From the IMG/VR virus record IMGVR_UViG_2740892212_000008: a stretch of 6,740 nt of DNA, one strand, 5' to 3'. Below, in pieces: positions 1 to 6,740 of the stretch. This DNA is from a virus (taxonomy: Duplodnaviria > Heunggongvirae > Uroviricota > Caudoviricetes). Position 1 is the stretch's first letter; the number at the start of each line of letters is the position of its first letter. The position numbers and the translations under genes are program-made. Under the pieces are notes generated by a model, which saw only the letters and a list, made by a program, of their open reading frames with translations, did no database searches and was not told the origin of the DNA.

Positions 1-9
1 GAGTAACAC

Positions 10-663
10 ATGACCACTATTACCAAAGAACGTATTGAATTGTTCATTAAAAATCCGCTTGAAAACGGGCTTACCCGTGGTGAACAAATGGAACTGGCAC
101 GGATTGCGCTGGCATCGCTGGAAGCAGAGCCGGTGGCAAAGATTATAGCTCATTACCCATTAGGAGTTGACGTAGGCAAACAAAAGTTCGTACAGGCCAT
201 TGGAGAGCTTCCTGACTTTGGCGGATATCTATTTGCCGCCCCTCCAGCGCCGATAGTGCCGGAAGAAATGTATTGGCAGGATGCGCCAGTTGAAGGCAGC
301 AGCAAAGCGGCTGCATACGCTACAGGCTGGAACGATTGCCGCGAAGCCATGCTTCAGTCCGGAAACTTTCGGGAAAATAAAGATTCGTCAACCAATAATT
401 TTCGGAAAATCCCGGAAGCGTCAACCAGCTCTCCGGTAACTCCGGCTCTTCTGCCTGGTGGTTTCACCATTGAGGATGCGAAGGATTTACATGAAGACCT
501 GGTGCGCAGCCACATAAGCCAGGCTTTAAGTAGCGAAAAGATGAAAAAGAAAGATCGCGATGCTGATTTGCGTTGGATCCATGGCGTTATAGTTCAGGCA
601 GCGTGGTTTGTGAAAGCATCACTGGAAGCGTTGCCTGAACTGTCGCAGGAGGTGAATCAATGA
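10..663 (+). CDS. hypothetical prophage protein, 217 aa, function unknown
   Basis: Uninterrupted ORF from ATG 10 to TGA 661-663. No protein family recognised by eye. The stop overlaps the ATG of the next small ORF (ATGA). Confidence 0.6.
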   Translation: MTTITKERIELFIKNPLENGLTRGEQMELARIALASLEAEPVAKIIAHYPLGVDVGKQKFVQAIGELPDFGGYLFAAPPAPIVPEEMYWQDAPVEGSSKAAAYATGWNDCREAMLQSGNFRENKDSSTNNFRKIPEASTSSPVTPALLPGGFTIEDAKDLHEDLVRSHISQALSSEKMKKKDRDADLRWIHGVIVQAAWFVKASLEALPELSQEVNQ

Positions 664-743
664 CCTGGCCTGAGGCATTCACAACGGTAGGAATTGCGAT
701 GGCGGTGACGCTGGTGGTGTATTCGATTTGCCGCTGGGGATAA
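660..743 (+). CDS. small hydrophobic peptide, 27 aa (MTWPEAFTTVGIAMAVTLVVYSICRWG), possibly a membrane peptide
   Basis: ATG 660-662 overlaps the upstream stop, suggesting translational coupling. One predicted transmembrane-like segment. Too short for the ORF track; a chance ORF cannot be excluded. Confidence 0.3.
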   Translation: MTWPEAFTTVGIAMAVTLVVYSICRWG

Positions 744-750
744 AAACGGT

Positions 751-778
751 TTGCGGGAAAAGGAGAGTTAAGTAGAAT
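751..778 (+). promoter_or_regulatory. candidate sigma70 promoter for the hok mRNA
   Basis: -35 TTGCGG (751-756), 16-nt spacer, -10 TAGAAT (773-778). Predicted start near 785, about 113 nt upstream of the mok-like start, which fits hok-family mRNA layout. Confidence 0.35.
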
Positions 779-780
779 TG

Positions 781-796
781 CTGCGGGTGCTTGAGG
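781..796 (+). promoter_or_regulatory. 5' tac-like element of hok mRNA, complementary to the 3' element at 1160-1175
   Basis: The reverse complement of 781-796 (CCTCAAGCACCCGCAG) matches 1160-1175 (CCTCAACGCACCCGCA) with a single-nucleotide bulge. This is the 5'/3' fold-back arrangement typical of hok-family mRNAs. Confidence 0.5.
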
Positions 797-839
797 CTAT
801 CTGTCTCAGGCATGAACACCAAAAGGCAGATAGAGAAAA

Positions 840-906
840 GCCCCAGTTAACATTACGCGTCCGGCAAGACGCTTAACATTAATCTGAGGCCATATCTATG
901 CTCTAC
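840..906 (-). ncRNA. putative Sok-like antisense RNA covering the mok translation-initiation region (boundaries approximate)
   Basis: Expected by analogy with hok/sok loci. A weak minus-strand promoter is present (-35 TTGCCT at plus 941-936, 17-nt spacer, -10 TAACCT at plus 918-913). No clean terminator was found, so this is speculative. Confidence 0.2.
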
Positions 907-1110
907 ACACGTAGGTTAGCCTCTTACGTGCCGAAAGGCAAGGAGAAGCAGGCTATGAAGCAGCAAAAGGCGATGCTTATCGCCCTGATCGTCATCTGTT
1001 TAACCGTCATTGTGACGGCACTGGTAACGAGGAAAGACCTCTGCGAGGTACGACTCCGAACCGGCCAGACGGAGGTCGCTGTCTTCACAGCTTACGAACC
1101 TGAGGAGTAA
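898..1110 (+). CDS. mok-like reading frame: in-frame 19-codon N-terminal extension of hok (70 codons)
   Basis: ATG 898 is in frame with hok and shares its stop, as in chromosomal mokC/hokC and mokB/hokB pairs. GAGG lies 10 nt upstream. Confidence 0.4.
   Translation: MLYTRRLASYVPKGKEKQAMKQQKAMLIALIVICLTVIVTALVTRKDLCEVRLRTGQTEVAVFTAYEPEE
955..1110 (+). CDS. hokD: Hok/Gef family type I toxin, 51 aa, HokD/RelF-like
   Basis: Translation MKQQKAMLIALIVICLTVIVTALVTRKDLCEVRLRTGQTEVAVFTAYEPEE is recognised as Hok/Gef family: one transmembrane segment and the conserved RKDLCEV...TGQTEVAVF core. Stop TAA 1108-1110. Confidence 0.9.
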   Translation: MKQQKAMLIALIVICLTVIVTALVTRKDLCEVRLRTGQTEVAVFTAYEPEE

Positions 1111-1159
1111 GAGACCAGGCGAGGGAGAAATCCCTCGCCACCTCTGATGAGTCAGGCAT

Positions 1160-1175
1160 CCTCAACGCACCCGCA
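1160..1175 (+). promoter_or_regulatory. 3' fbi-like element of hok mRNA, partner of 781-796
   Basis: Complementary to 781-796 (see above). Lies between a 9-bp stem/GAAA-loop hairpin (1118-1139) and the terminator. Confidence 0.5.
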
Positions 1176-1178
1176 CTT

Positions 1179-1205
1179 AACCCGCTTCGGCGGGTTTTGT
1201 TTTTT
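1179..1205 (+). terminator. rho-independent terminator at the end of the hok transcript
   Basis: Stem AACCCGC / GCGGGTT with TTCG loop, followed by TTTTGTTTTTT. Confidence 0.65.
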
Positions 1206-1463
1206 CCTGGCATTCTGGTTTACAATTCGCACGTCAGCCTNNNNNNNNNNNNNNNNNNNNNNNNNNNNNNNNNNNNNNNNNNNNNNNNNNNNNNNNNNNN
1301 NNNNNNNNNNNNNNNNNNNNNNNNNNNNNNNNNNNNACGCGGATACGAGATTAAGAAAGCCCTCAGCCTCGATTATCGTCACTGGATAATCTATGTCAGG
1401 CTCCCTTATTCCGAACGCCCACCGCGCCCATCCCGCACATACCAGCAACGGATCTGGAGGTAA
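1197..1463 (+). CDS. possible small ORF in the position of Qin-prophage rem, interrupted by the N run; start undetermined
   Basis: A frame ends at TAA 1461-1463, two nt before the preferred GTG start of the DUF968 gene. Only the last 42 codons are visible after the N run and their composition is not convincingly coding. Confidence 0.2.
   Translation: MFFPGILVYNSHVSXXXXXXXXXXXXXXXXXXXXXXXXXXXXXXXXXRGYEIKKALSLDYRHWIIYVRLPYSERPPRPSRTYQQRIWR
1241..1336. other. run of 96 N: unresolved or masked sequence
   Basis: Directly visible. Any ORF call crossing it is unverifiable. Confidence 0.95.
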
Positions 1464-1464
1464 C

Positions 1465-2514
1465 GTGCGGATATTACTTCGACCTGTTCTGGTACCGGAA
1501 CTCGGGCTTGTGGTCCTTAGGCCGGGCTGTGAATCCATGCAAGTATTTCATAACCCTCGAGTGCTGGTGGAGCCTGAACCGAAAAGCATGCGCGGTCTGC
1601 CGTCCGGAGTCGTCCCTGCCGTTCGCCAGCCGCTGGCGGAGGATAAATCATTACTGCCATTTTTCAGCGATGAGCGTGTGATTCGTGCTGCTGGCGGCGC
1701 TGGCGCACTGTCTGACTGGCTCCTGCGTCATGTTAAATCCTGCCAGTGGCCTCATGGAGACTATCACCACAGTGAAACCGTCATACATCGTTACGGTACC
1801 GGCGCAATGGTGTTGTGCTGGCACTGCGACAACCAGCTGCGCGACCAGACATCCGAATCACTCGGGCAGCTTGCTCAACAAAATCTGACAGCCTGGATGA
1901 TTGACGTCATACGTCACGCAATAAGTGGTGCACAGGAACGGGAATTATCGCTGGCTGAATTATCCTGGTGGGCGCTCTGCAATCAGGTAGCGGACGCACT
2001 ACCGGAGGCAGTATTACATCGTTCTCTGGGGTTACGCGCGGAAAAAATCCACTCAGTATACCGCGAGAGTGACATCATACCGGGAGAACAGACAGCCATC
2101 AGCATACTGAAGCAGCGCACAAAAAATTTTGCGCCGTTGCCTCACGCCCACCAGCAACAGAACCCACCACAGGAAAAGACGGTGGTCAGCATTGCCGTTG
2201 ATCCGGAGTCACCGGAATCATTCATGAAGCGGCCTAAACGTCGCCGCTGGGTGAATGAGAAATACACGCGCTGGGTAAAGACACAGCCGTGTACATGTTG
2301 TGGTAAGCCAGCAGACGATCCCCATCACCTGATTGGTCACGGTCAGGGCGGAATGGGGACAAAATCTCACGATATTTTCACGCTACCGCTGTGTCGGGAG
2401 CATCACAACGAGCTTCATGCGGATCCGCTGGCGTTCGAAGAAAAGCATGGTTCTCAGGTTGATTTAATTTTTCGTTTTCTTGATCACGCCTTTGCAACTG
2501 GCGTGCTTGGGTAA
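1465..2514 (+). CDS. DUF968-family prophage protein with HNH-like Cys/His motif (YdfU-like)
   Basis: C-terminal CTCCGKPADDPHHLIGHGQGG...LCREHHNELH is recognised as the DUF968 / His-Me-finger-like signature. A second Cys/His cluster (CQWPHGDYHH...CWHCDN) lies upstream. Preferred start is GTG 1465, 4 nt after GGAGG (349 aa); the upstream in-frame ATG 1393 (373 aa) is the alternative. Stop TAA 2512-2514. Confidence 0.7.
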   Translation: MRILLRPVLVPELGLVVLRPGCESMQVFHNPRVLVEPEPKSMRGLPSGVVPAVRQPLAEDKSLLPFFSDERVIRAAGGAGALSDWLLRHVKSCQWPHGDYHHSETVIHRYGTGAMVLCWHCDNQLRDQTSESLGQLAQQNLTAWMIDVIRHAISGAQERELSLAELSWWALCNQVADALPEAVLHRSLGLRAEKIHSVYRESDIIPGEQTAISILKQRTKNFAPLPHAHQQQNPPQEKTVVSIAVDPESPESFMKRPKRRRWVNEKYTRWVKTQPCTCCGKPADDPHHLIGHGQGGMGTKSHDIFTLPLCREHHNELHADPLAFEEKHGSQVDLIFRFLDHAFATGVLG

Positions 2515-2526
2515 AAGAGGTGACTG

Positions 2527-2886
2527 ATGCTCATAGATTTGGTTTTACCTTACCCGCCGACGGTGAACACTTACTGGCGACGCCGTGGCAGCACATATTT
2601 TATCTCGGAGGAGGGAAAGCGTTATCGCCGGGCTGTGGCGCTTATTGTTCGCCAGCAGCGGCTGAAATTAAGCCTGTCCGGAACGCTGGCGATAAAGGTG
2701 ATTGCAGAGCCATCGGATAAGCGTCGTCGCGACCTGGACAACATTCTGAAAGCACCGCTGGATGCGCTGACGCATGCGGGAGTGCTCATTGATGACGAGC
2801 AGTTTGATGAAATCAATATTGTACGTGGTCAGCCAGTATCTGGTGGACGGCTGGGTGTGAAGATTTACAAAATTGAGAGTGAGTGA
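2527..2886 (+). CDS. rusA: RusA-family Holliday junction resolvase
   Basis: 119 aa with the RusA hallmarks PYPPTVNTYW...RRRDLDNILKAPLDAL and a C-terminal GGRL segment. Strong SD GAGGTG 4 nt upstream of ATG 2527. Stop TGA 2884-2886. Confidence 0.9.
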   Translation: MLIDLVLPYPPTVNTYWRRRGSTYFISEEGKRYRRAVALIVRQQRLKLSLSGTLAIKVIAEPSDKRRRDLDNILKAPLDALTHAGVLIDDEQFDEINIVRGQPVSGGRLGVKIYKIESE

Positions 2887-2894
2887 GCGTAAAT

Positions 2895-3446
2895 ATGATA
2901 TATCCGGAAATTACAGGCAAAAGCGGCGAACATTTACGCCTGAACACGCTGGAAGCAGTCTGGATCCAGGGGAAATTACGGATGTGGGGGCGGTGGTCGT
3001 ATATCGGTGGGGGTAAATCCGGAAATATGTTTAACCGGTTACTGGTTTCGAAAAAGCTGACGAAAACAGCAGTTAATGAGGTTTTACGCAGAATGAAGAA
3101 ATCCGGGCTGGAAAAACCGGAACTTGAGGCATTTTTTCGGGATATGACAAGAGGAAAGCAGAAGAGCTGGTTGTCACATTGTACAGACACAGAGGCGTTG
3201 ATTATTGATCGCGTTATCAGTGAGGTGCTTGGGGAATATCCCGGGCTAATCAATGTTCTCCGGCAAAGGTACGAAGGACGGGGAATGAGCAAACTGAACA
3301 TGGCCGAAAGGTTAAATGCAGATCATCCTGATTGGTCGTTGGTTACGTGCAGACGCCGAATTGATCAATGGTTGGGGGTATCTGAATTTATGTTATATGC
3401 CCCCATGCGCATGGCTTTTGTTACAGAGAAAAATGTTGCAAACTGA
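2895..3446 (+). CDS. putative late-gene antiterminator Q
   Basis: Position is diagnostic: directly after rusA and directly before terminator structures and late-region cargo. 183 aa from ATG 2895; the in-frame GTG 2883 overlaps the rusA stop as an alternative start. Family assignment is from context and weak recall only. Confidence 0.6.
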   Translation: MIYPEITGKSGEHLRLNTLEAVWIQGKLRMWGRWSYIGGGKSGNMFNRLLVSKKLTKTAVNEVLRRMKKSGLEKPELEAFFRDMTRGKQKSWLSHCTDTEALIIDRVISEVLGEYPGLINVLRQRYEGRGMSKLNMAERLNADHPDWSLVTCRRRIDQWLGVSEFMLYAPMRMAFVTEKNVAN

Positions 3447-3526
3447 TCAATAAACTGCTTCAATCCGTATAAGCTTCGCAAAGCTGTATCGCGAGGCGAA
3501 ACGCAAGTTTTTTTCGCACAAGGAAG
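3436..3526 (+). promoter_or_regulatory. candidate late promoter (PR'-like) and Q-utilisation region
   Basis: -35-like TTGCAA at 3436-3441 inside the Q 3' end; -10-like hexamers TTCAAT (3459-3464) and TATAAG (3468-3473). Exact promoter not resolved. Region carries nested inverted repeats and a weak hairpin plus T7 at 3496-3514. Confidence 0.3.
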
Positions 3527-3547
3527 CCACCGGAAGGTGGTTTTTTT
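3527..3547 (+). terminator. rho-independent terminator, tR'-like
   Basis: Stem CCACC / GGTGG with GGAA loop, followed by seven T (3541-3547). Confidence 0.6.
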
Positions 3548-3670
3548 GTGTCCGCGATATACAGTAGCGCAATAAATTCGCTGGTGGTTATTAATACCGT
3601 TCTTTCAGCTTGCTGGCTTTTTCGACAAGAGTTATTGGTGTGTCACGTTAACCGGAAAAGGGAAAAAGAC

Positions 3671-3868
3671 ATGCTAAAACAGCAGGATATGACAGAAACC
3701 GCCAGAGTGGTGTTTAATGAATTAAGCGTTACCGAACCGGCGACAGTCGGGGAGATAGCGCAGAATACTTACCTTTCACGCGAACGCTGCCAGTTAATAC
3801 TGACCCAGCTGGTTATGGCGGGTCTGGCAGACTATCAGTTCGGTTGTTACAGACGCCTTCCGCAGTGA
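3671..3868 (+). CDS. small protein, 65 aa, winged-helix-like (PapI/FaeA-like pattern), putative DNA-binding regulator
   Basis: ATG 3671 with AAGGGA 7 nt upstream. The segment TVGEIAQNTYLSRERCQLILTQLVMAGL resembles a helix-turn-helix recognition region. The ORF-track version starts at GTG 3548, next to the terminator T-run, and is less likely. Confidence 0.5.
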   Translation: MLKQQDMTETARVVFNELSVTEPATVGEIAQNTYLSRERCQLILTQLVMAGLADYQFGCYRRLPQ

Positions 3869-3878
3869 AGGCTTTTTT
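3855..3878 (+). terminator. terminator-like hairpin overlapping the small ORF stop codon
   Basis: Stem GCCTTC / GAAGGC with 6-nt loop, followed by TTTTTT. Confidence 0.4.
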
Positions 3879-3895
3879 ATTTGTGGTAAATGGGC

Positions 3896-3926
3896 GGCTG
3901 GTGGGTGTTAGGGGCACCCACCAGCC
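3896..3926. repeat. perfect 12-bp inverted repeat with 7-nt spacer
   Basis: GGCTGGTGGGTG (3896-3907), spacer TTAGGGG, CACCCACCAGCC (3915-3926). No adjacent T-run, so it is an operator or RNA-structure candidate rather than a terminator. Confidence 0.7.
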
Positions 3927-4018
3927 ATCTGCTCATGCGTTGGGTTCACAAGCAAACCTCAGGCCCACTGCTTTGCGCAAAAGCAGAATGAGCCTATCAG
4001 AGACAGGCTTAATGATCC

Positions 4019-5068
4019 ATGCTTAATACTGTAAAAATATCCAGTTGTGAGTTAATCAACGCCGACTGCCTGGAATTTATCCGGTCGTTACCCGAAAATT
4101 CTGTTGACCTGATAGTCACGGACCCGCCGTACTTTAAAGTGAAGCCTGAGGGCTGGGATAACCAGTGGAAGGGCGACGATGATTACCTGAAGTGGCTGGA
4201 CCAGTGTCTGGCGCAGTTCTGGCGGGTGCTGAAACCTGCCGGAAGTCTTTACCTGTTCTGTGGTCATCGCCTGGCATCTGATATCGAAATCATGATGCGT
4301 GAACGCTTCAGTGTGCTGAACCATATTATCTGGGCGAAGCCGTCCGGACGCTGGAACGGATGCAACAAGGAAAGCCTGCGGGCGTATTTCCCCGCCACAG
4401 AGCGCATTCTGTTCGCGGAACATTATCAGGGGCCGTATCGCCCGAAAGATGCCGGGTATGAGGCGAAGGGCAGGGAACTGAAACAGCATGTGATGGCCCA
4501 GCTGATTTCTTACTTTCGTGATGCACGCGCGGCCCTGGGGATAACGGCAAAACAGATTGCAGATGCCACAGGAAAGAAAAACATGGTGTCGCACTGGTTC
4601 AGTGCCAGTCAGTGGCAGCTACCGAACGAAAGCGATTATCTGAAATTACAGTCGCTGTTTGCCCGGGTGGCAGAAGAGAAACATCAGCGGGGAGAACTGG
4701 AAAAGTCCCATTACCAACTGGTCAGCACATACAGTGAGCTGAACCGGCAGTATATGGAACTGCTGAGTGAATATAAAAATTTGCGGAGGTATTTCGGTGT
4801 GACGGTGCAGGTGCCGTACACCGATGTGTGGACGTATAAACCGGTGCAGTACTATCCAGGGAAACATCCGTGCGAAAAACCGGCAGAAATGCTGCAGCAG
4901 ATAATCAGCGCAAGTAGTCGTCCTGGTGATCTGGTTGCGGATTTTTTCATGGGGTCGGGTTCAACGGTAAAAGCGGCGATGGCACTGGGGCGTCGTGCGA
5001 TTGGTGTTGAGCTGGAGACCGGACGTTTTGAGCAGACAGTCAGGGAAGTTCAGGATTTAATCGTTTGA
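4019..5068 (+). CDS. DNA methyltransferase, beta-class amino-MTase (probably N6-adenine), orphan
   Basis: 349 aa with catalytic motif IV DPPY near the N-terminus (SVDLIVTDPPYF) and SAM-binding motif I near the C-terminus (DLVADFFMGSGST). This order is the beta-class arrangement. No restriction-endonuclease-like ORF is adjacent. Confidence 0.9.
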   Translation: MLNTVKISSCELINADCLEFIRSLPENSVDLIVTDPPYFKVKPEGWDNQWKGDDDYLKWLDQCLAQFWRVLKPAGSLYLFCGHRLASDIEIMMRERFSVLNHIIWAKPSGRWNGCNKESLRAYFPATERILFAEHYQGPYRPKDAGYEAKGRELKQHVMAQLISYFRDARAALGITAKQIADATGKKNMVSHWFSASQWQLPNESDYLKLQSLFARVAEEKHQRGELEKSHYQLVSTYSELNRQYMELLSEYKNLRRYFGVTVQVPYTDVWTYKPVQYYPGKHPCEKPAEMLQQIISASSRPGDLVADFFMGSGSTVKAAMALGRRAIGVELETGRFEQTVREVQDLIV

Positions 5069-5117
5069 AACGGATGAGATTGCAGTATTAATTCCGTAAC
5101 GTTATTATTCTGCGCGC

Positions 5118-5193
5118 GGCCCTTTAGCTCAGTGGTGAGAGCGAGCGACTCATAATCGCCAGGTCGCTGGTTCAAATCCAGCAAGGGCCACCA
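5118..5193 (+). tRNA. ileZ: tRNA-Ile2 (anticodon CAU, lysidine type), phage-encoded
   Basis: 76 nt with canonical cloverleaf: acceptor GGCCCUU/AAGGGCC, anticodon loop CUCAUAA, T-loop UUCAAAU, 3' ACCA. Very close to E. coli tRNA-Ile2. Confidence 0.85.
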
Positions 5194-5200
5194 TCACATA

Positions 5201-5277
5201 CCGCCATTATCTCATCAGGAAAGAGCGCCAGCCTTCGAAGCTGGTTGCGCGGAGTTCGGGTCCCCGAAGGCGGTCCA
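5201..5277 (+). tRNA. tRNA-Arg-like (anticodon UCG), possibly degenerate (argN position)
   Basis: Anticodon stem-loop CCAGC-CUUCGAA-GCUGG and a D-loop with A14 and GG are present. Acceptor stem has one mismatch, T-stem one mismatch, and T-loop is UUCGGGU (G where A58 is expected). Confidence 0.45.
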
Positions 5278-5290
5278 TTATCTGTATCCT

Positions 5291-5367
5291 GCGTTGTTAG
5301 CTCAGCCGGACAGAGCAATTGCCTTCTAAGCAATCGGTCACTGGTTCGAATCCAGTACAACGCGCCA
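5291..5367 (+). tRNA. argO: tRNA-Arg (anticodon UCU), phage-encoded
   Basis: 77 nt with canonical cloverleaf: acceptor GCGUUGU/ACAACGC, anticodon loop CUUCUAA, T-loop UUCGAAU, 3' GCCA. Confidence 0.85.
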
Positions 5368-5381
5368 CACTTATTTTCCCT

Positions 5382-5407
5382 GGCTCGCTTTTGCGGGCCT
5401 TTTTTTT
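5382..5407 (+). terminator. rho-independent terminator after the tRNA cluster
   Basis: Stem GGCTCGC / GCGGGCC (7 bp, one G-U) with TTTT loop, followed by eight T (5400-5407). Confidence 0.7.
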
Positions 5408-5604
5408 AAATGTCTCACAATTCAGACGGTTGACAGTTGTCTGTTTTGCGGGGAGTTTGTTAAAAGAAACTGGCATGGTGAATCCCCCTGTGCGGAGGGG
5501 CAATCAGCGAGTAGGTATATGGGATAATCGTGGATTCAGGTGCTGGTACTGAATTCACCGGGAGGCACCCGGCACCATGCAATGGCACATAGCGCCACTC
5601 TCCA

Positions 5605-5628
5605 GCCCCTCTCCGGAGGGGCTTTCTT
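5605..5628 (+). terminator. terminator-like hairpin, plus strand
   Basis: Stem GCCCCTC / GAGGGGC with TCCG loop, followed by TTTCTTAT. Confidence 0.4.
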
Positions 5629-5634
5629 ATGGAC

Positions 5635-5663
5635 AAAAAAAGCCCGCGCAGGGAGACGCGGGC
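5635..5663 (-). terminator. rho-independent terminator, minus strand
   Basis: Plus-strand A7 (5635-5641) then stem GCCCGCG / CGCGGGC with 8-nt loop. Read on the minus strand this is a GC stem followed by seven U. Confidence 0.5.
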
Positions 5664-5704
5664 GGCAAGGAATAAACAACAAAACGTGAAGTAATATTTC
5701 AGCT
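5635..5704 (-). ncRNA. candidate ~70-nt small RNA, minus strand (hypothetical)
   Basis: Minus-strand promoter-like element: -35 TTGCGC (plus 5739-5734), 18-nt spacer, -10 TATTAT (plus 5715-5710). The transcript would carry a GU-rich stretch (GUUUUGUUGUUUAUUCC) and end at the minus-strand terminator. No coding potential. Confidence 0.2.
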
Positions 5705-5856
5705 GGCGAATAATATCCGACAGTAATCACTCTGCGCAATAGCGCGGCCTTTTTCGTATTGCGGGCTGTTGTCTCTCTTCTGCCATTGTCCTGTAACTTC
5801 CGGACTTCAGCCCGCTCCTCATTTTACTCACAATATTATCCCGGCCGGGAGGATTC

Positions 5857-6740
5857 ATGGCATTTAAACACTATGATGTTGTCAGGGCGGCGTCGCCGTC
5901 AGACCTTGCGGAAAAGCTGACACACAAACTGAAAGAGGGCTGGCAGCCATACGGCGGACCGGTTGCCATTACGCCGTACACACTGATGCAGGCGGTGGCT
6001 ATTGAAGGAGAGCCACAGGTCGGCCCTTCATCTGAGCCGGATTGGTACTACGTCATCGTACTGGCCGGGCAGTCCAATGCCATGGCTTACGGTGAAGGGC
6101 TTCCGCTGCCGGATTCATACGATGCTCCGGATCCGCGCATTAAACAGCTGGCGCGCCGCAGTACAGTGACGCCGGGCGGGGCTGCCTGCAGATATAACGA
6201 TATTATTCCGGCTGACCACTGTCTGCATGATGTGCAGGATATGAGTACGCTGAATCATCCGAGGGCTGACCTGAGCAAAGGGCAGTACGGCTGTGTCGGT
6301 CAGGGTTTACATATTGCCAAAAAACTGCTCCCGTATATCCCGAATAACGCGGGGATCCTGCTGGTACCATGCTGTCGTGGTGGTTCGGCATTTACCCAGG
6401 GCGCGGAGGGGACATTCAGCGAGTCCACGGGGGCCAGTCAGGATTCGGCACGCTGGGGGGTGGGCAAGCCGTTATATCAGGATCTGATTTCCCGCACAAA
6501 AGCGGCATTGCAGAAAAATCCCAAAAACGTTCTGCTGGCCGTCTGCTGGATGCAGGGTGAGTTTGACATGAGCGCCGCCACCCACGCACAGCAACCTGCG
6601 CTGTTTACAGCCATGCTGACACAGTTTCGTGCTGACCTCTCCGTGTTTAACGCGCAGTGCCATGGTGGCAGTGCTGCAGATGTGCCGTGGGTTTGTGGTG
6701 ACACGACGTATTACTGGAAAAATACATACGCTACCCAGTA
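5857..6740 (+). CDS. nanS: prophage sialate O-acetylesterase (NanS-p type) with N-terminal DUF1737-like region; 3' end beyond the window
   Basis: ATG 5857 with GGGAGG 4 nt upstream. Frame is open to the window end (294 codons, verified by hand; absent from the ORF track because it lacks a stop). Contains the SGNH/SASA nucleophile block VIVLAGQSNAMAYG. Confidence 0.85.
   Translation, partial: MAFKHYDVVRAASPSDLAEKLTHKLKEGWQPYGGPVAITPYTLMQAVAIEGEPQVGPSSEPDWYYVIVLAGQSNAMAYGEGLPLPDSYDAPDPRIKQLARRSTVTPGGAACRYNDIIPADHCLHDVQDMSTLNHPRADLSKGQYGCVGQGLHIAKKLLPYIPNNAGILLVPCCRGGSAFTQGAEGTFSESTGASQDSARWGVGKPLYQDLISRTKAALQKNPKNVLLAVCWMQGEFDMSAATHAQQPALFTAMLTQFRADLSVFNAQCHGGSAADVPWVCGDTTYYWKNTYATQ

Follow-up and report, generated by a model that had tools for sequence, protein, structure and literature searches.

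A methyltransferase (MTase) gene in the late region of a lambdoid phage raises three questions: which enzyme it encodes, which sites that enzyme methylates, and when in the phage cycle it is made. The gene studied here lies in the window (the whole 6,740-nt stretch of DNA that was analysed, taken from the Caudoviricetes record IMGVR_UViG_2740892212_000008). From the letters alone it had been predicted to encode an orphan beta-class DNA methyltransferase with a long internal insertion, positioned in the late operon. The explanation that we regard as highly probable is that the gene is an allele of M.EcoGII, encoding a non-specific MTase that would be expressed late in a Q-dependent manner and would serve anti-restriction.

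The predicted protein carries the features of an intact beta-class enzyme. The Pfam profile N6_N4_Mtase matched MTase residues 29-340 over its whole length (profile positions 1-219 of 221; E=1.4e-44), indicating that the catalytic motifs are intact and that the match is not due to chance, and the protein was also labelled a DNA methyltransferase by PHROGs and by PADLOC. The order of its motifs, with DPPY at the N-terminal end, a target-recognition domain (TRD) in the centre and FxGxG at the C-terminal end, is that of the beta class, and together with the profile match it bears out the class originally assigned. Both motifs were found where they had been placed, at residues ~35-38 and ~310 (Table 1). 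F310, G312, S313, G314 and S315 of motif I are invariant in 40 aligned homologs, and the conservation of core residues across this set showed no sign of the degenerate catalytic motifs that had been named as counting against the prediction. Assignment to two better-known beta-class groups was rejected: the YhdJ equivalog (NCBIfam NF008572) scored 116.2 bits, in two separate stretches, against a curated cutoff of 292 bits, and the CcrM equivalog (NCBIfam NF050803) scored 73.1 bits against a curated cutoff of 830 bits.

Table 1. Positions of the MTase gene, its motifs and the neighbouring features in the window; the last two lines give the small ORF in the coordinates of other loci.
Feature	Position	Strand	Evidence and remarks
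217-aa phage ORF	10-663	+	No Pfam match; phrog_60 and others, function unknown
Hok/Gef-family type I toxin ORF	898-1110	+	Pfam HOK_GEF E=1.5e-22
Run of 96 N (masked or unresolved bases)	1241-1336		Between the hok-like and DUF968 genes
DUF968/HNH protein	1393-2514		Upstream of RusA and Q
RusA	2527-2886		Upstream of MTase
Q-like late antiterminator	2883-3446	+	DUF1133 E=8.5e-105; Phage_antitermQ E=3.9e-07; phrog_753 'anti-termination protein Q-like' E=2.8e-75
Intrinsic-terminator-like hairpin	3527-3547	+	ccacc-ggaa-ggtgg, then T7; hairpin scan and direct reading
Conserved 65-aa ORF	3671-3868	+	phrog_331 E=5.9e-45; TrmB E=0.008, below cutoff (weak winged-helix similarity)
Second terminator-like hairpin with T-run	3855-3882	+	Stem 3855-3872, tail TTTTTTATTT; between small ORF and MTase
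Beta-class N6/N4 DNA methyltransferase gene (M.EcoGII-type)	4019-5068	+	ATG start, 349 aa plus stop
Motif IV, catalytic DPPY, residues 35-38	4121-4132	+	Invariant in 40 aligned homologs
Predicted HTH-containing TRD, residues 160-237	4496-4729	+	Domain limits from the published AF2 model of M.EcoGII (PMC11551740)
HTH-like stretch LGITAKQIADATGKK, residues 173-187	4535-4579	+	Position in the ORF translation
Motif I, AdoMet-binding FMGSGS (FxGxG), residues 310-315	4946-4963	+	Invariant residues given in the text
Three tRNA genes: CAT, Arg-TCG, Arg-TCT	5118-5367	+	ARAGORN and RefSeq annotation
CAT tRNA	5118-5193	+	Met (ARAGORN) or Ile (RefSeq)
Terminator-like hairpin with T8	5382-5409	+	3' of the tRNAs
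Small ORF in other loci	L002 4620-4850; L003 5272-5469; L004/L005 2653-2850		
Small ORF in other loci, continued	L006 2511-2705; L007 2512-2715; L009 2659-2853		

The two motifs are separated by 271 residues, in agreement with the predicted middle region of ~270 residues, longer than that of compact beta-class enzymes. Enzymes of the beta class carry their target-recognition domain between the catalytic and the AdoMet-binding halves. The nearest solved structures by sequence (M.BceJIV, M.RsrI, CcrM, an N4-cytosine MTase, M.MboIIA and M1.HpyAVI) all belong to this class, and every one of these matches splits into an N-terminal and a C-terminal block. In the alignment with M.BceJIV (8urk/9c3u), query residues 8-115 and 269-333 pair with chain residues 31-138 and 196-263, which gives the window MTase ~95 extra residues in the middle. 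The reading of this region as an internal insertion did not survive comparison with the family. Nearly all of the best 120 cluster representatives are 348-358 aa long; an exhaustive search of representatives at 50% identity returned 305 at E<=1e-30, many of them aligned end to end at 35-50% identity; and in the 81 of these that contain both motifs, motifs IV and I are a median of 259 aa apart. The long middle is probably the standard TRD plus linker of the M.EcoGII family, common to thousands of homologs of ~350 aa and to distant representatives.

The HTH-like reading of a stretch in the middle region is supported, since this stretch falls inside a domain predicted for M.EcoGII. In the high-confidence AF2 model published for M.EcoGII, residues 1-134 and 260-349 make up the Rossmann core, residues 160-237 form a four-helix-bundle TRD that contains a helix-turn-helix, and a long, highly charged, partly helical linker is present that is missing in M.PflMI (PMC11551740). 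We built an AF2 model of the window MTase from an alignment of 40 close homologs (74-93% identity). Owing to the shallow alignment its confidence was moderate, with a mean pLDDT of 64.7 and values of about 70-83 in the TRD. Helices were predicted at residues 146-173, 177-184, 190-194, 204-223 and 231-255, where the published model leads one to expect them, with the HTH-like stretch in the region of the second and third, and Pfam HTH_3 gave a sub-threshold match on residues 167-195 (E=0.026). The fold matches of this model were beta-class MTases as well: M.BceJIV, the N4-cytosine MTase of the bdelloid rotifer Adineta vaga, CcrM, M.MboIIA and M.RsrI.

The closest characterised enzyme is M.EcoGII from E. 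coli O104:H4 (C227-11 / 2011C-3493; GenBank EGT69837.1 as cited in PMC11551740), a beta-class enzyme of 349 aa encoded in a prophage and described as 'very similar' to the enzyme of phage 1720a-02 (Murray et al. 2018, PMC5778455). The window protein and M.EcoGII are of equal length and identical at 342 of 349 residues (98%) in a gap-free alignment, and the window protein and the exact M.EcoGII sequence fall in one 90% cluster. The reference sequence was that of Supplementary Table S1 of Ochiai et al. 2024 (PMC11551740), with which raw BLASTP gave 338/350 identities; three mismatches in the reference (NHHIW, TKVPQ and GRRRAIG), absent from 134 homologs, were corrected as machine-reading errors. 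Once corrected, the sequence agrees exactly with AFS73976.1, AKE83937.1 and UniProt A0A0E0Y1D5_ECO1C.

M.EcoGII is a non-specific adenine MTase that in vitro can modify as much as 99% of dA (PMC5778455). The original prediction had called the target specificity unknown, a statement overtaken by the 98% identity to an enzyme shown to methylate adenine in any context; the experiments proposed with it, namely cloning and expression, SMRT methylome analysis and restriction-protection assays, were published for M.EcoGII in 2012-2018. Its sequence, its length, the order of its motifs and its genomic surroundings place the window gene in the M.EcoGII family, the non-specific beta-class adenine MTases of enterobacterial prophages, and it is already known, as a member of an annotated and experimentally characterised family. 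Five complete E. coli genomes contain DNA 100% identical to the gene, annotated there as 'DNA-methyltransferase'; the 'DNA methyl transferase' genes of phage 1720a-02 and of many Stx2 phages match its DNA at 93% identity, and the counterpart in phiP27 at 85%. Of 5426 complete E. coli genomes, 1978 carry the gene, at no more than six places per genome, and it is annotated there.

All seven differences from M.EcoGII (in the window allele, E153 for A, Q161 for P, S164 for A, S191 for P, S230 for P, Y232 for H and Q244 for K) lie within residues 153-244, in the TRD and linker and outside the Rossmann core. Since the catalytic core is untouched, the window allele is likely active, and its identity to M.EcoGII suggests that its activity would be M.EcoGII-like. 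Reconstructed ancestors, which are much farther off than the window protein, keep non-site-specific activity. At three of these positions (P161Q, P230S and H232Y) 39 other homologs show no variation; close alleles in other prophages also have S230 and Y232, but not Q161. Relative to the nearest alleles, non-synonymous codon changes outnumber synonymous ones (6 vs 3 and 8 vs 4), all of them located at residues 85-249. Such a pattern in the TRD and linker points to a relaxation of constraint in cryptic prophages or to diversification of the TRD.

The surroundings of the gene are those of a lambdoid (pro)phage: DUF968, RusA, a Q-like protein, tRNAs and a SASA esterase flank the MTase. The SASA-family esterase gene lies downstream of the tRNAs and runs off the window, and the matching genomes and phages continue with holin, endolysin, Rz and terminase. 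No REase-like neighbour of the MTase is present in the window, and PADLOC gave no matches for the DUF968/HNH protein, the 217-aa ORF or the ORF at 3548-3868, which encloses the 65-aa ORF, so that the description of the gene as an orphan stands. A Type II restriction-modification system was rejected, there being no adjacent restriction endonuclease gene. The DUF968/HNH protein was considered as a nuclease partner and also rejected: many lambdoid phages have this conserved nin-region gene upstream of Q, it is set apart from the MTase by RusA, Q and the small ORF, and a sequence-non-specific methylase would have no logical cognate REase.

Other observations concern the composition of the window. 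It is a mosaic, in which positions 1-5994 are 99.5% identical to the Qin-like prophage of O55:H7 DEC5B and others and O55:H7 RM12579 and O111:H2 12A, in which a SASA-family esterase comes next, match positions 5400-6740 at 100% identity; over the whole window, identity to any one complete genome did not exceed ~92%. The ORFs listed across the run of N are artefacts. The Hok/Gef-family ORF is annotated as hokD in the Qin-like prophage of DEC5B, and the 217-aa ORF bears the RefSeq name 'dTDP-6-deoxy-L-hexose 3-O-methyltransferase' in several genomes, for which no support was found here. The two names given to the CAT tRNA in Table 1 come from ARAGORN, applied to the window, and from the RefSeq entry for an identical gene. 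Together with the two Arg genes, the CAT tRNA makes up an Ile/Arg/Arg array that the matching E. coli prophages (L001, L003 and L005) also have at this place.

The order of elements in the window is Q, hairpin, small ORF, hairpin, MTase and tRNAs. SfV, mEp460, a Pantoea prophage and O55:H7 prophages have the MTase after Q and before holin/endolysin/Rz, and its Q-to-lysis position is the same in the functional phages SfV, mEp460, phiP27 and Stx2 phages. Across the inspected loci, the module sits behind three different Q types. In SfV, terminators are annotated on both sides of the MTase, and an annotated rho-independent terminator stands at the place equivalent to that of the first hairpin downstream of Q in the window, which is a candidate tR'. 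The late-operon position that had been predicted is thus supported: the gene follows a Q-type antiterminator where the late/lysis region begins, the tRNAs come after it, and SfV and mEp460 show synteny. A promoter scan of the + strand from 3300 to 5600 found no sigma-70-like site. By eye, TTGCAA and TTCAAT with a spacing of 17 nt were noticed at 3436-3464, a weak candidate only, and we claim no position for pR'. Synteny and the hairpins suggest that expression of the MTase would be late and Q-dependent. The late-operon synteny fits the reported silence of M.EcoGII in lysogens; expression of M.EcoGII from a plasmid slows growth (PMC5778455).

We propose the following mechanism for the M.EcoGII-type enzyme of the window. 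The Rossmann core (about residues 1-134 and 260-349) would bear the DPPY catalytic and FxGxG AdoMet-binding motifs, and the central ~125 residues would form the HTH four-helix-bundle TRD and the charged helical linker. A large basic surface would bind nucleic acid without reading the bases, so that any flipped adenine could be methylated; this is the published model, in which base-independent binding is attributed to the large basic surface of M.EcoGII as a proposal of the authors (PMC11551740). In the lysogen the gene would be silent, being downstream of Q and behind the terminator-like hairpins. Upon induction, Q-modified RNA polymerase would read through the hairpins, and the MTase would be made late, together with the lysis genes. 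Replicated phage DNA would then be methylated at adenines in any context before packaging, and the proposed benefit is that progeny DNA would be shielded from Type I, II and III restriction systems that are sensitive to adenine methylation. Restriction protection, which the original prediction had also put forward, has been proposed for the M.EcoGII family (PMC5778455, PMC12707154), and we infer an anti-restriction role for the window MTase. In the literature on Stx and lambdoid phages, no in vivo test of this role was found for EcoGII-type enzymes; with respect to induction, that literature gave only methylome surveys, in which homologs from O111 STEC are tabulated as 'nonspecific' and no activity was detected in uninduced cultures.

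The gene could instead be a decaying, weakened or inactive M.EcoGII-type copy in a defective prophage, with an intact ORF and no role in the phage life cycle. The closest genomic context is that in DEC5B, where a cryptic Qin-like prophage (dicB, ydfC, ydfA, hokD) harbours a 100%-identical copy and, downstream of it, numerous genes that are partial or frameshifted. Because this context is decayed, with several pseudogenes, the window allele could be weakened; the three substitutions at otherwise invariant positions and the excess of non-synonymous codon differences from the nearest alleles are in keeping with such decay. However, the ORF is full length, every catalytic-core residue is conserved with all differences outside the Rossmann core, and the exact window protein is recorded on 454 contigs. 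S230 and Y232 also occur in alleles from prophages that keep their lysis genes, and the non-synonymous excess is limited to the TRD, which is the most variable part of the family between functional phages as well (L003 comparison). We consider decay very unlikely.

A main in vivo role other than anti-restriction, such as methylation of RNA or ssDNA or epigenetic control of genes of the phage or the host during lytic growth, appears to us scarcely probable. Single-stranded DNA, DNA:RNA hybrids and RNA are listed among the in vitro substrates of M.EcoGII, but its activity on RNA is ~100-fold below that on DNA (V0 0.12 vs 11.12; Supplementary Table S3, PMC11551740). The tRNA genes and a small putative winged-helix protein adjoin the MTase gene, and full methylation may be costly: transformation of E. 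coli with M.EcoGII-modified plasmid DNA is 4-5 orders of magnitude lower, which sits uneasily with the view that heavy methylation is simply beneficial. Nevertheless, an MTase that lacks sequence specificity cannot mark particular regulatory sites, and both the primary and the review literature favour anti-restriction (PMC5778455, PMC12707154).

The M.EcoGII allele, which as a late, non-specific, anti-restriction enzyme remains our preferred reading, has a frequent companion. A small ORF of 64-77 aa stands ~150 nt upstream of the MTase in eight of the nine places inspected (the window and seven of the eight other loci), and it was found directly upstream of the MTase in L001-L007 and L009. The one exception is a rearranged Erwinia locus (L008), which lacks it. 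The small ORF accompanies the MTase behind three different Q types, including in the functional phages SfV and mEp460, and to judge from this gene order the two look like a conserved two-gene module. In some records the small ORF is named 'TrmB family transcriptional regulator', and no study of the small upstream protein was found in the literature. The 65-aa putative winged-helix protein may be a dedicated partner of the MTase, acting as a controller of its timing or level or as a targeting or limiting factor, and P161Q, P230S and H232Y may make the allele differ from M.EcoGII in the substrates it prefers or in its processivity. The reading that joins these two suggestions we consider unlikely. 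If the 65-aa protein is a partner, 'M.EcoGII' would be a two-gene module and not a lone orphan, and the conserved small ORF may offer a handle on the control of a toxic MTase. For the MTase gene itself there is nothing new: the window allele adds only natural TRD variation to M.EcoGII, which is a commercial reagent for chromatin-accessibility mapping and for protein-DNA/RNA mapping.

Among the known systems, M.EcoGII is the nearest, agreeing with the window MTase in length, in the DPPY-TRD-FxGxG order and in its prophage setting. M.EcoGI belongs to the same family, has the same length and is encoded by a second prophage copy in the same O104:H4 strain, which according to the introduction of the M.EcoGII paper carries two non-specific adenine MTases (PMC5778455); with 333 of 349 residues shared (PMC5778455), it is farther from M.EcoGII than the window protein is. 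M.PflMI, the closest characterised site-specific relative (CCANNNNNTGG; PMC11551740), resembles M.EcoGII in its beta-class core and in the similar HTH-type TRD of its predicted structure, but it is only ~27% identical to M.EcoGII, lacks the highly charged inter-domain linker and is sequence-specific. M.BceJIV, which is the nearest solved structure by sequence and the best Foldseek match, shares the beta-class Rossmann core (blocks at E about 1e-26); unlike the window MTase, it has the shorter stretch between the core blocks described above, is without the M.EcoGII-type TRD and linker, and is sequence-specific. Mom of phage Mu is a functional analogue and not a homolog, an unrelated protein with different chemistry that is not an AdoMet N6-methyltransferase. 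Its parallel with the role proposed here lies in its biology, as a DNA modification of a temperate phage for which silence in the lysogen, toxicity on expression, late production and a presumed anti-restriction role are described (PMC12707154).
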